Shown here piece after piece: positions 12,437-60,210 of a stretch of DNA of 64,000 bases; within the stretch, counting starts at the first letter, position 1, and the number at the start of each line of letters is the position of its first letter. The notes under the pieces were generated by a model. It ran no database searches. It had not been told where the DNA came from and saw only the letters and a list, made by a program, of their open reading frames with translations. A program made the translations under genes and the position numbers. Origin of the DNA: Eledone cirrhosa (lineage: Eukaryota); contig OZ024751.1 in assembly GCA_964016885.1 (NCBI GenBank), positions 12,896,001 to 12,960,000 of the forward strand, read 5' to 3'.

Positions 12437-12613
12437 TAGGAAAAAGTATGACCCCGACGGAAGAGCTCAAGCCGTTTCGACGGCTATTTCTCGAAACGGC
12501 TTGAGCTCTACCGTCGGGGTCATACTTTTTCCTATTACCCACTCTACTACCCTAAGTATTGAGTACTCTGGTGCGTTATGGTCCATCTGGTTCCTTACCA
12601 CAATTCCTTCGTT
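12437..12613 (+). mobile_element. Fold-back element, family D (3' half of a hammerhead plus tail) in (TA)n
   Basis: Hairpin 12437-12534; GAAACGG...CCGTC-ggggtc at 12493-12521; tail shared with the 22085, 42753 and 60002 copies. Confidence 0.75.
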
Positions 12614-14044
12614 TATTTATTTATATATATATATATATATTTATATATATATATATATATATATATATATATATATATATATATATATGTGTGTGTGTGT
12701 ATATATAATATAAAGATATATAGATAGATATGCACTCACGTAGATATACAGATATATTTATACATACATGTAGACGTTCATATATACGCATGCATACATA
12801 TATATATATACATACATATATCTGTTTTTATATACTCACACGCATACGTTTTTATACACACACACACGCATATATATATATATATATATATATATATATA
12901 TATATATATATATTTGTGTGTGAGAGAAGTTTTATCTATCTATTGTATAACATACACATACAAGCGTCCACTAATGTATGCATATATATATGTATATGTA
13001 TTTATAAGTATGTATATATATGTATATGTATCTATAAGTATGTATTTATATATATATATGTATTTATAAGTATGTATATATATGTATATATGTATCTATA
13101 AGTATGTATTTATATATATATATGTATATGTATTTATAAGTATGTATTTATATATATATATGTATATGTATTTATAAGTATGTATTTATATTTATATATG
13201 TATATGTATTTATAAGTATGTATTTATATATATATATGTATATGTATTTATAAGTATGTATTTATATATATATATATGTATATGTATTTATAAGTATGTA
13301 TTTATATATGTATATGTATATGTATTTATAAGTATGTATTTATATATATATATATATGTATCTATTAGTATGTATTTATATATATATATATGTATCTATT
13401 AGTATGTATTTATATATATATATGTATATGTATTTATAAGTATGTATTTATATATATATGTATATGTATCTATTAGTATGTATTTATATATATATATATG
13501 TATCTATTAGTATGTATTTATATATATATATGTATATGTATTTATAAGTATGTATTTATATATATATATATGTATATGTATCTATAAGTATGTATTTATA
13601 AGTATTGTATTTATAAGTATGTATTTATATATATATATGTATATGTTTTTATATATTATATATGTGTATTTATATATGTATGTGTGTGTATGTGTGTTTA
13701 TGCATGCATGTCTGTACACACACACACACACACACACACACACACACACACACACACACACACACATAAACACACATGACGTGAGATGCATTTAAAGAAC
13801 TGGACCCAATTTTAACCATCATTGCTCTCTATAAAATGTTTGATATAATAATTCTTTCTACGTTTGGCACAAGGCCAGCAATCAACCAGTGAATTACTGG
13901 TACTTTATTTTGATATAATAATAAAAATATGATTGAAATGGCACAGACAGTTAAGCTATAGATAGCTGCATATTTGGTGTAAAGTAGCTGCGTTCAATCC
14001 GCGATCGAATTTAATATATATATATATATGTATAGACGCGTAAC

Positions 14045-14240
14045 CAGTGCTAGAATTACCACTGTGCTTATGTGTGCTTAAGCATAGGGCCCCGTTGGCC
14101 GGTAGGGTGTGTGTGTGTGTGTGGGGGGTATATTCCTGCCAAAAATATTTACTTCCTTCAGGGCCTAAGTAAGGGGCCTCATTAAGTAAGGGGCCTAACT
14201 TAACTATCATAGAGCCTCATTTGTCCTAAATCCGGCACTG
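14045..14240. mobile_element. hAT-type MITE
   Basis: TIRs cagtgctagaatta / taaatccggcactg; 8-bp TSD cgcgtaac (14037-14044) / tgcgtaac (14241-14248). Confidence 0.75.
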
Positions 14241-14514
14241 TGCGTAACTGTTGGAGTCAAATGACCGCCGTCCTCACAACCAGTATATCTTAGGCAATTC
14301 AAACCTGGTGGAACTCGTCCCTCTTCAGGTCTGAGCACAGTATATTTCTTCCAGAGAAGATGGGAAGAAAAAAAACAGTAAGAAAGAGATATACAGGTAA
14401 AATCCACCTCATTATTGCACTGGTATATATTTTATATTTTATCGACCTTGACAGGTTTTGAACTCAAAGCGTAGAGAGCTGGAAAGAATGCAGCAAAGCA
14501 TATTAGTTGAGTGA

Positions 14515-14790
14515 AGGTGCGTAGCCTAGTGGTAAGGGGGTTGGACTTATGATCATAATGCCGCAGGTTTCTATTCCTGGACTGAGTTGGGTGTTGTGTT
14601 CTTGAGCAAAACACTTAATTTCACGTTGCTCCAGTATACTCAGCTGAAAATGAGTACCAGCAATGGCTGGGCGTTTGACCCTGTGATGGACTGGCGTCCT
14701 GTCCTGGGGTGTAGGGAGTTTTGTACTCTCAGTCGCTTCACGCCACAAGACCTAAGTAAACACCGTCCTGGCGAGCTTCCTGGCTTGAAA
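14515..14790 (+). mobile_element. tRNA-derived SINE family 2
   Basis: A box tagcctagtgg, B-box-like ggtttctattcc, body ttcttgagcaaaacactt...cagctgaaaatgagtaccagc; inverted homolog at 35060-35285. Confidence 0.75.
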
Positions 14791-15173
14791 CAGACCTTAG
14801 ACTAGACCTAGCGCTAGACAACTACAACACCGACAAAAACAATATCAACTAATACAACAACTTGAACTAAAGAGGGAGCCAAACTCCTTCAAGTCACAAC
14901 TTATCTGGTGTGTTTTTTTAAAAAAAAAAAAGGACATATTAAGATACCATATTCGTTCCCGTATTGCGCGCATTCGTGTATAAAGCGCAGCCTTTTTAAC
15001 CAGAAAAAACATGTCTAGAAAAGCCTGATTTTGATGTATAATATATAGTTGTGGTGTATACTCCGTACCCCCCAAAACAAACAAGGACGAAAAGTGAAAA
15101 AAAGAAAAAAACACTGGGTGGCATATGCAGAAGAATAGAGTAATGTTTTCCTTGATATTATTATGTTTGAAAA

Positions 15174-57232: not shown

Positions 57233-57948
57233 CATACATACATATATAAATATATATATATATATATATATATATATATATATATATATATATATATATT
57301 CAGCGAGAATCGTATTTCGGCTGGTAGAAAAAGCGAAACGAAACGCAAAATCGTAGAAATGCTGGCAAGCGCTCCAATAGTTAAGAAAACCTAGAGCTAA
57401 ACAATATGTTAAAACGCCATACAAACTGAAAAGTGACAGGCTGAGGTCATTCTGGGGCACCGCCATTGAAATATAATTAGCGTCACCGATAGGATTCAAC
57501 CGTATGCGAGGAGACCTCAATGTATTTCCAGTCCATGGACAGCGTTTGGCTTATGACAGACGCAGTGACCAGCAGTACCTTTGGTAGGGGTTCAAATTGC
57601 TAATGGCCGATGACCAAGGAATTCTGTGACCTTCGTTTGTATATATTGGGTCGTCAAGTATGAAATTTGTAGAAATTTGTTTTTTTTTATAAATTTCTAC
57701 AAATTTCATACTTGGTGACCCAATATATACATACATATATATATATATATATATATATATATATATATATATATATTTAAATTGTTTTGTTTCCGTTTGT
57801 TGTCTTGTTCTTTCTTTGTTAATTTTCTTAAGTTATATATATCTATATATAATATATATATATATATTAATAATAATAATAATAATATTTTAATAAATAT
57901 ATATATATATATATATATATATATATATATATTATTATTATAAAATAT

Positions 57949-58726
57949 CTCTGTCTGATGACCGATCCAGGCGTATATTAGTATTGTCTGGAATCCAGAA
58001 ACCTTTGGTAATGGAGTAGTTATATTTTGTGTTGTTCACTTTCTAATTAAATAGTTCTGTTCTATACATAGAGCACTCTTTTTTTCTTTGCTTTTCCTTC
58101 GGAATTACCTAACACACACACATATATATACTGTGTTTTATATCATTAGATATTATTTGTGACTTAAATATCCCAGAAAATAGGAAGTCGGATAGAATAC
58201 TTTGCGGTATTCGTCCCTGCTCTCTACGTTGTTCAAATCACACCGTACTCACGTTTGCCTTTCACCTCCCGAGATAGATAAAACAATGTACCAATGTAGT
58301 ACTGGGGTCGATTTTTACTCTATATCTCTTTCTCACTTCCAAAGTGTAAATATCCTAGAAACCCCCACTTTACATACTGATGTTGTGTTATAATGTTGAC
58401 AAATTTCGAGGCACAAATCTTATGTTGCCTAGCATAAAGCCTGCTCAATCTTCTTGTCCTTCACTTGGTAGTTTCTGTGTGTATTTATGTTATATTGTCT
58501 GGGATATTTAAGTCACAAATAATATCTAATTATATAAAACACAGTATATATATATGTGTGTGTGTTAGGTAATTCCGAAGGAAAAGCAAAGAAAAAAAGA
58601 GTGCTCTATGTATAGCACAGAACTATTTAATTAGAAAGTGAACAACACAAAATATAACTACTCCATTACCAAAGGTTTCTGGATTCCAGACAATACTAAT
58701 ATACGCCTGGATCGGTCATCAGACAG
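57949..58726. mobile_element. Family G-related element: about 227-bp inverted arms, each with an intact hammerhead
   Basis: ctctgt-CTGATGA(57955)-ccgatccaggcg...tgtctggaatcca-GAAACC-ttt-GGTA-atggag. Arms 57951-58177 / 58498-58726 are nearly identical. Confidence 0.85.
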
Positions 58727-58939
58727 CTTCTTATATATATATATATATAAGATTTATATATAAATATAATATATATATATATATATATATATATAAGATT
58801 TATATATAAATATAATATATATATATATAAGATTTATATATAAATATAATATATATATATATATATATATATATATAAGATTTATATATAAATATAAGAT
58901 ATATATATATATATATATATATATATATATATATATATA

Positions 58940-59503
58940 TGAATAAATTTAGTCCTTCATCAGAGATCTTCCAACCTTCATTGGTATTTCATCAGTTTAA
59001 AGACCATATACCTCTGGTTGGTGCGAGTAACGGCTAAAGAAAGTTGTTGGGACACGTCAATAGGGGGAACGAGCGAGACAGTAAACACCAAAGATGGTAA
59101 TGCAACGAAAAGTGAAGAAGAAGGAGTCAAGTCCCTGAAATCGGTGAACATAAGTTCTGTGAAATCGTGGACGAGAGAGAATAAAGACCATCCGACCTGG
59201 TCGAAATGTGAGTGAGGAAAGAATTTCGCACCGGTCAAACGGGAGGAAGTAGGAGAGGGAGTGAAAGTGTGAGGAAGGGGCTAACAGAGAGAGTGACTGG
59301 CAGAGGTGGTAAAAGGAAGTGAGAGATACAGAGAAAAGGGGAAGCAGTAAGAAAGAAACAGACGGGTCACAGCGTAGGAAAATATATATGAAAAATATGA
59401 AAACATGGCGTGCTGCGTGGTTGCAAATGGGTTACATAATGAATAAATTTAGTCCTTCATCAGTGATCTTCCAACCTTCATTGGTATTTCATCGCTTTAA
59501 AGA
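58940..59503 (-). mobile_element. About 500-bp element bounded by 64-bp direct repeats containing CTGATGA (pLTR/retrozyme-like)
   Basis: tgaataaatttagtccttcatcag.gatcttccaaccttcattggtatttcatc at 58940 and 59440; homologous fragment at 62165-62258. Confidence 0.65.
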
Positions 59504-60001
59504 TATATATATATATCGCTTTAGAGATATATATATCGCTTTAAAAAAAAAAAATATATATATATGAAACACATAAACATATATATATATATGAAACACA
59601 CACACACATATATATAGATATTATGTGGAAGAATGAGTGTGTATATTTATATGCCTCTGACTGTGCGTGTGTGTGTATATATATGTGAGTATTACGTAAT
59701 TTTAATATTGCCCCAAAGCTGTTGACCTGGCGTTTCTTCATGTTTTAGTATCAATGTAAATGTTGACCTAAATATTTACTGCTTTTATATAAACCTACTT
59801 ACACGCTGTTTCTTTACAACACGTTCCTGCCCACTGCATACCTCTATATACATTAATGTATGTGTTGATTTTATACAAATATATATGTGTATGTATATAT
59901 ATGTATATGAATGTATACATGTGCATATATATATATATATATATATGCACATGTATACATTCATATATATATATATATATATATATATATATATATATAT
60001 A

Positions 60002-60210
60002 TAGGAACAAGTAGGACCCCGACGGCTGAGCTCAAGCCGTTTCGACGGCTAATTCTGGATTAGAATTAGTAGTCCAGAATTAGCCGTCGAAACGGCTTGA
60101 GCTCAGCCGTCGGGGTCCTACTTGTTCCTATTACCCACTCTACTACCCTAACTATTGAGTACTTTAGTGCGTTATGGTCCACCTGGTTCCTTACCACATT
60201 TCCTTCGTTA
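60002..60210 (+). mobile_element. Fold-back element, family D, with a near-perfect 129-bp hairpin
   Basis: Arms 60002-about 60062 / about 60070-60130, followed by the family tail. Confidence 0.8.

Follow-up and report, generated by a model that had tools for sequence, protein, structure and literature searches.

The 64,000-nucleotide stretch of Eledone cirrhosa DNA analyzed here (contig OZ024751.1, positions 12,896,001 to 12,960,000 of the forward strand; referred to below as the window) contains four copies of a short repeat that carries half of a hammerhead ribozyme. The question raised by this locus is why the 5′ half of the ribozyme is missing, and how an inverted copy of the remaining sequence came to stand in its place. 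The copies are located at 12437–12614 (+), 22085–22253 (+), 42753–42946 (−) and 60002–60210 (+), each is bounded by (TA)n runs on both sides, and a BLAST comparison of the window against itself detected the family as these four copies only. As described in the first-pass annotation of this DNA, each copy contains the GAAAC-GGC..GCC-GTC-GGGGT half-ribozyme, with GAAA damaged in the copy at 22085, and upstream of every copy there is a mirror arm, which always ends at the same CCTA. It had further been proposed that this arm is rebuilt at each insertion by a nascent cDNA, which snaps back at stem II and copies itself to a fixed boundary. The data showed that an autonomous Penelope-like element (PLE) with motifs of the Hydra clade is the source of the four hairpins, which are its short ends, and that the mirror arm is made anew at each insertion. 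The arm is probably not made by snap-back; more likely, both target strands would serve as primers on a single RNA, at positions separated by 80 nt, and the two cDNAs would run off the RNA 5′ end and then be joined (twin target-primed reverse transcription).

When the genome (3.0 Gb, 1,796 contigs) was searched with a 25-mer across CCTA and the tail, 26,573 exact matches were obtained, and a 28-mer of the mirror-arm end gave 12,539, while the reversed control gave none in either case; the presence of the family in the genome is far beyond chance. Positions are numbered so that the last A of CCTA is c-1, which is site p1; site p2 is c+79, the last A of CGTTA, and the hammerhead cut site is located between c-20 and c-19. 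Individual loci were picked by exact patterns, so that the sample leans to young copies of three subfamilies. Arm ends were determined by 10-mer tiling and a joint split parse of both arms; automated end-callers misplaced the ends at palindromic junctions and mutations.

The identity of the parent element was revealed by the longer copies. Three of the first 30 loci (L010, L012 and L013) extend past the turn point, and upstream of it they contain a frame with reverse transcriptase (RT) and GIY-YIG. Intact tandem arrays of the parent, which contains no hairpin, were located in the genome by a protein search. The parent unit is 3,531 bp long, with an open reading frame (ORF) of 716 aa that starts from an ATG at c+171 and contains YRDD. 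Pfam and PDB sequence searches with this ORF gave no match, and the fold search alone placed it: the structure was predicted with a pLDDT of 91.8, and the top Foldseek match was TERT (3du5, E 1.6e-8, TM 0.34). The GIY-YIG is in the same ORF, C-terminal to the RT, and was recognized at the motif level (VIY...YIG, around residues 590–608). The ORF also contains the Hydra-clade motifs DKT, CNCPDRSIC, CNLC and CKH and one Cys inside the GIY-YIG core, it is devoid of CCHH, and it has RWR at the place of the N-terminal RWK of this clade. The insertion preference for (TA)n is also that of the Hydra clade, and the element has tandem or partial-tandem pseudo-long terminal repeats (pLTRs), an inverted 5′-truncated copy and a one-sided tail; an inverted 5′-truncated copy with a tail at one end is the published layout of PLEs (Schostak et al. 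2008, PMC2377424; Arkhipova et al. 2013, PMC3846280; Craig et al. 2021, PMC8557442). The motifs apart from RWR would fit an affinity to the Hydra clade; the element adds to the PLEs that have motifs of this clade, and its layout is already known. In the tandem parent p1 and p2 follow shortly after the ribozyme, where the next unit begins, which means that a hairpin has a 3′ end of the element on either side, while the 5′-truncated ends meet in the middle. Part of the most abundant short repeat family of the window (44 nt, 91%; 55733–55776 of the window) is also present in the element 3′ untranslated region, at L013:794-837.

To compare the two arms, 102 hairpins were used, which remained from 125 arm records after 4 p2/p2 records, 17 with indels and 2 damaged ones had been removed. 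At eight polymorphic sites the arms of the same hairpin differed in 29 of 816 comparisons, as compared with 229±11 for pairs that had been shuffled, and mutations acquired later are specific to one arm or the other. Hence, the mirror arm is made anew at each insertion, as the first-pass annotation had claimed. The same variant segment is present in both arms of a copy, also as reported, while these variants are subfamily variants rather than private to a copy.

The way in which the ends are paired is informative about the mechanism. Each insertion borders (TA)n with p1 on one side and with p2, located 80 nt downstream of p1, on the other, and the truncated ends meet mid-element. Among 90 loci anchored at p1 there were 78 p1/p2 insertions, 5 solo p1 copies and 7 long arms without a partner within the locus; the sole p1/p1 call (L186) is actually p1/p2 with a mutated tail, which leaves no true p1/p1. 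Among 88 loci anchored at the tail, 61 had a mirror arm, 16 were solo, 9 were long, and 2 were p2/p2. The RNA reads UAU at both p1 and p2, where it can pair with the primer end of (AT)n. The mirror arm does end at a fixed CCTA boundary, as had been noted, but a second site of priming is a better interpretation of this boundary than a point where copying stops.

In the proposed pathway the GIY-YIG endonuclease would cut both strands of a TA run, and each of the two target 3′ ends would pair with a UAU of the same transcript, one at p1 and the other at p2. Both cDNAs would then extend to the RNA 5′ end or drop off, and their 3′ ends would be joined by microhomology or by short A/T-rich fill-in. 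Most templates would begin at c-60, the likely start site, which is inside the stem II loop of the hammerhead, so that the 5′ half of the ribozyme would never be in the template, while a minority would probably have been self-cleaved and hence start at c-19. Long and full-length copies would arise when priming takes place on the downstream junction of a read-through or tandem RNA. In LINE-1 twin priming the RNA serves as template twice, the second time with the other target strand as primer, which results in a head-to-head inversion with a microhomology join. The second site in LINE-1 is variable and the copied pieces do not overlap, while here the second site is fixed at 80 nt from the first, and hence the same sequence is copied twice.

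The best surviving alternative, which we nevertheless regard as unlikely, is snap-back or self-priming, in which the tail-primed cDNA would fold back, copy itself to CCTA and be joined to the target, and later deletions would trim the tail arms. It accounts for the identity of the arms and for the p1/p2 layout, and many of the turns are short palindromes. Because a mirror arm copied from the tail-primed cDNA should never exceed the tail arm in its 5′ reach, the lengths of the arms were compared in 110 short hairpins (111 were parsed and 1 was skipped; the cut-off for a difference was at least 8 nt). The arms were within 7 nt of each other in 70 of them, as snap-back would allow, but the mirror arm reached at least 8 nt further 5′ in 28, while the tail arm reached further in 12. 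In 6 of the 110 the tail arm starts beyond p1, so that the arms share nothing. The longer mirror arm is also seen in two of the window copies (12437 and 22085), and in young long copies, 99–100% identical to the reference (L150-152, L153-154 and L158), the mirror arms are kilobases longer than the tail arms; at L150-152 the mirror arm spans more than three units, while the tail arm reaches only c-203. Two of the 28 hairpins (L196 and L206) are later internal deletions; deletion thus contributes to the difference, which weakens the argument for two primers. The solo p1 copies (5/90) and the hairpin with arms from two subfamilies (L081) also speak against snap-back, which moreover gives no reason for the stop at CCTA. 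At 53 loci, counted by hand, both arms end at the cut site with one A or T between them, which is too tight for a fold-back loop. The proposed turn at stem II did not hold either: the letters found there mirror the 3′ strand of stem II, the short copies lack its actual 5′ strand (CTCGGCTATT), both strands never occur in one short arm, and the short arms stop near c-60, about 25 nt short of that 5′ strand. At the turns of four loci (L172, L195, L233 and L239) there are poly(A)/poly(T) runs of 10–40 nt, which suggests reiterative copying at the template end.

A different version of two-strand priming, in which the two cDNAs would normally be made on two separate RNAs from the same active source locus, appears still less probable. 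The L081 arms from two subfamilies could be explained in this way, and both of the p2/p2 hairpins that could be compared (L097 and L252) have discordant arms. However, free choice of sites on two RNAs would yield p1/p1 hairpins, which were found in 0 of the 78 partnered loci. When loci were sampled by the tail arm, the cut site was the end of both arms in about 10 of 30, though ends of this kind are rare overall (254 against 26,573 tails, counted with different patterns). In addition, one long insertion has two arms that both stop at c+910, inside the element, and are separated by a palindromic spacer of 29 nt (L157:5083-5113). Chimeric arms were also considered as a general proof of two templates, and this was rejected, as the 15 single-site switches did not exceed the number expected from mutation (8.7–13).

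The two remaining explanations, of which the first-pass annotation had named one as a condition that would refute a rebuilt arm and the other as an alternative to exclude, do not explain the identity of the arms, and both are largely refuted and very improbable. A non-autonomous source already carrying the mirror arm, like that of a miniature inverted-repeat transposable element (MITE), would fit short, very abundant, TA-flanked copies with inverted ends and a few recurring junctions, but 121 p1/p2 hairpins have 107 distinct centers (a count inflated by mutation), 7 of the 8 recurrent centers are common to different variant segments and thus cross subfamilies, no hairpin is present in the parent, a retroelement in tandem units, and the ends are asymmetric by 80 nt, with arms from 19 nt to more than 10 kb, which is not the symmetric, fixed-length, inherited terminal inverted repeat of a transposase element. 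Later homogenization of independent arms by gene conversion could claim the 4 non-consensus changes shared by both arms at invariant non-CpG sites, 2 of which are a subfamily allele, but 36 changes were left-only and 34 right-only, which means that the arms were not homogenized later, and the rate of private changes in the arms (1.3%) is near that of the single-copy tail (1.75%).

The long copies contain ACCCC, the core and the stem II 5′ strand, followed by a loop of about 35 nt and then by the half that is present in the window copies; full genomic copies with a 5′ half therefore exist, as had been anticipated. The absence of this half from the short copies was confirmed, while its sequence is ACCCC-TTGANAAG, with a U3-A8 core, or ACCCC-CTGAGAAG, rather than the expected GACCCC-CTGANGA. 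An exact search close to the latter (with C at the variable base) gave 9 matches, none of them with the 3′ half of the family. The core is U3-A8, a known active hammerhead variant (PMC3088659), in 31 of 38 long copies, C3-A8 in 6, and otherwise damaged in 1; all six C3-A8 copies belong to the CTACTCG subfamily (6 of its 9 long copies). The unconstrained minimum-energy structure of L151 is a hammerhead three-way junction, with the stems and core of type I. An Rfam search of the window gave two tRNA-like matches and no ribozyme, the half-ribozymes being undetected.

A second hammerhead family is present in the window at 4638–4795, 35837–36224, 37693–37885, 41565–41629 and 44088–44256. It has a canonical CTGATGA core, the same layout of tail and mirror arm and a similar tail motif, and a 31-mer from it gave 4,510 exact matches in the genome. 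In three long arms, judged by eye, there is a wall just upstream of its ribozyme, with TATAAAT 30 nt upstream of the wall.

The arms of the main family end at two preferred positions. At the first of these, between c-60 and c-70, the number of tail arms falls from 48 to 10 of 88 and that of mirror arms from 51 to 15 of 90, after which both are nearly flat. Since this wall is common to both arms even though their priming sites are 80 nt apart, it would reflect the end of the template rather than processivity. It coincides with YYAGT in the stem II loop, which we take to resemble the initiator consensus, and TATT(T/C)A starts 29–31 nt upstream of its A in 12 of 13 long copies; the motif is mutated in the exception (L050). 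The wall is therefore probably a start of transcription, preceded by a TATA-like box at a distance of about 30 nt; transcription from here would give a template without the 5′ half of the ribozyme. An extra G before c-60 was found in 31 of 128 short arms (one of them a misfiled long copy) and in none of 48 long arms, which fits the copying of a cap, as a hint only. Two DNA sequencing runs, possibly from the assembly's own sample, show steps of depth at c-60, p1 and p2; contig depth does not give copy number. In one RNA run, taken as contigs, a single contig was placed, and it falls outside this region.

The second wall is at the cut site. Exactly at c-19, after A or T, 254 copies begin, or 424 when G is also allowed, of which about a fifth are G-run slips; at control start positions there were 49 at c-22 (inflated by a subfamily allele), 34 at c-15 and 6 at c-25. 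The CTACTCG subfamily, in which the core is mostly mismatched, is depleted among the loci with both arms ending at the cut site (7/53, compared with 50/90 overall, P=4e-7), while one U3-A8 subfamily makes up 28/53 of them, compared with 10/90 overall (P=1e-7). The most plausible reading of this wall is that the RNA had cleaved itself and that both cDNAs were made on one such molecule and ran off its end. At L300:1422-1843 a copy that starts at the cut site directly abuts a piece of the ORF, which ends near c+631; this is a possible jump from the 5′ end of a cleaved RNA.

Several observations weigh against priming of one RNA by both strands, or against the two walls as read here. The sampled loci are mostly the first-listed places on one contig and are non-random. 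The identity of the arms could also reflect one active source locus instead of one RNA molecule, and clear chimeric p1/p2 hairpins, which are impossible by snap-back, are rare, as L081 is the only case. The hammerhead is the minimum-energy fold in 4 of 13 long copies, while the other 9, read by eye, prefer other folds. At the cut site, the control patterns differ in degeneracy, and the G-run may favor microhomology joins; the extra G before c-60 is often creditable to the other arm. Both the start site and self-cleavage are inferred from genomic copies.

We lean slightly towards a broader proposal, that the tail and the inverted pLTR of PLEs are one phenomenon, in which a dimeric RT-endonuclease would prime both strands at two fixed sites of one RNA. 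The tens of thousands of insertions in this genome would then record the RNA 5′ ends, map a promoter inside the ribozyme and show a U3-A8 hammerhead cleaving in the germ line, and the position of the promoter would spare the normal transcript from self-cutting, while read-through RNAs would be cut.

The element was compared with known systems. Hydra-clade PLEs, such as Hydra-1_Obim, share with it the C-terminal GIY-YIG, DKT, the CxCX5C linker, CxxC and CxH, the lack of CCHH, the (TA)n target, a hammerhead, partial tandems, the inverted 5′-truncated copy and the one-sided tail (Craig et al. 2021). It differs from them in the unit of 3.5 kb (mostly below 3 kb in the clade), RWR in place of RWK, the 80-nt tail (30–40 nt described for PLEs), the U3-A8 core, the long stem II loop and the reduction of most copies to hairpins of about 200 bp; as judged by eye, the family also differs from Hydra-1_Obim. 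Poseidon PAc of Anolis carolinensis, which in vitro cuts and extends both strands and has two RT start sites that bound the tail (Frangieh et al. 2024, PMC11167929), is similar in its AT-rich target, predicted dimer and two internal RT start sites at the tail bounds. In the available text of that paper the two start sites are not tied to the inverted copy and no RNA reads end at the ribozyme site, while here genomic copies pile up at that site. The Penelope elements of Adineta vaga and D. virilis also have head-to-head inverted pLTRs, palindromic junctions and an optional tail (Schostak et al. 2008; Arkhipova et al. 2013), with a putative TATA box and initiator in the pLTR of the rotifer element (Arkhipova et al. 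2013) and a TATA-less pLTR promoter in D. virilis (Schostak et al. 2008). The rotifer inversions were read as self-priming (Arkhipova et al. 2013), while the arm lengths and end pairing presented here favor priming at both tail boundaries. Non-LTR retrozymes are also short PLE-derived sequences with a type I hammerhead (bioRxiv 10.64898/2026.07.22.740005), but they are tandem monomers, each with a complete ribozyme, while the copies described here are dispersed hairpins with half a ribozyme. Even the one short tandem, at L207:2070-2730, in which a 257-nt unit from c-63 to c+193 is repeated head-to-tail behind a mirror arm, is without the 5′ half; its structure suggests template jumping or a small circular RNA.

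The origin of the tandem and inverted structures of PLEs and of their tail is stated to be open (Craig et al. 2021). In the literature consulted we found no account of the inverted arm as a product of priming at both tail boundaries, and no use of copy ends to map the start and cut sites of PLEs, although the reviews of Evgen'ev and Arkhipova 2005 and Arkhipova 2006 may discuss such models. Twin priming, if true, would explain a long-unexplained signature of this class of elements, and the question of the PLE inversion and tail becomes directly testable with this family, whose thousands of natural products share two fixed ends and show two 5′ walls. The pile-up at the cut site would also be genomic evidence that a PLE hammerhead is active in vivo; for the anole element, such cutting was not seen by RNA-seq (Frangieh et al. 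2024). PLE hairpins of such shape are easily mislabeled as MITEs.

The four window copies illustrate these features. In the copy at 12437 the mirror arm (12437–12491, −) extends from p1 to c-55, and the direct arm (12491–12534, +), which is shorter than this mirror arm, extends from c-44 to p1 and contains GAAA, stem III, the GTC cut site (after 12515) and the 3′ strand of stem I; the 80-nt tail from p1 to p2 (12535–12614, +) is followed by a TA-rich flank. The copy at 22085 consists of a mirror arm from p1 to c-60 with an internal deletion and one extra C at its end at 22130 (22085–22130, −), a direct arm from about c-40 to p1, in which GAAA is damaged by the junction (22134–22173, +), and the 80-nt tail (22174–22253, +). 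The copy at 42753, in which the element is on the minus strand, belongs to a more divergent subfamily, and the 5′ ends of its arms are approximate; it comprises the 80-nt tail (42753–42832, −), the direct arm (42833–42889, −) and the mirror arm, which ends at CCTA beside TA (42897–42946, +). In the copy at 60002, the mirror arm from p1 to c-58 (60002–60059, −) is separated by a 10-nt junction insert, similar to nearby arm sequence and without an assigned strand (60060–60069), from a direct arm that starts at c-61, at the main 5′ wall and putative start site, and extends to p1 (60070–60130, +; cut site after 60111), and the 80-nt tail to p2 (60131–60210, +) is followed by (TA)n.

At least four further families in the window have inverted arms beside TA runs, several of them with a one-arm extension (26883–27123, 42311–42466 and 57951–58726; 45195–45614 and 62307–62520; 17619–18061 and 26018–26147; 56651–56774), and these are likely other PLE ends. 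At 55141–55572 of the window two tRNA-like sequences stand head to head (Rfam matches at 55291–55361 and 55363–55433), each reaching about 200 nt out to TA runs, and similar inverted pairs were found in L043, L120, L162 and L194; this is possibly a tRNA-derived element mobilized in the same way.

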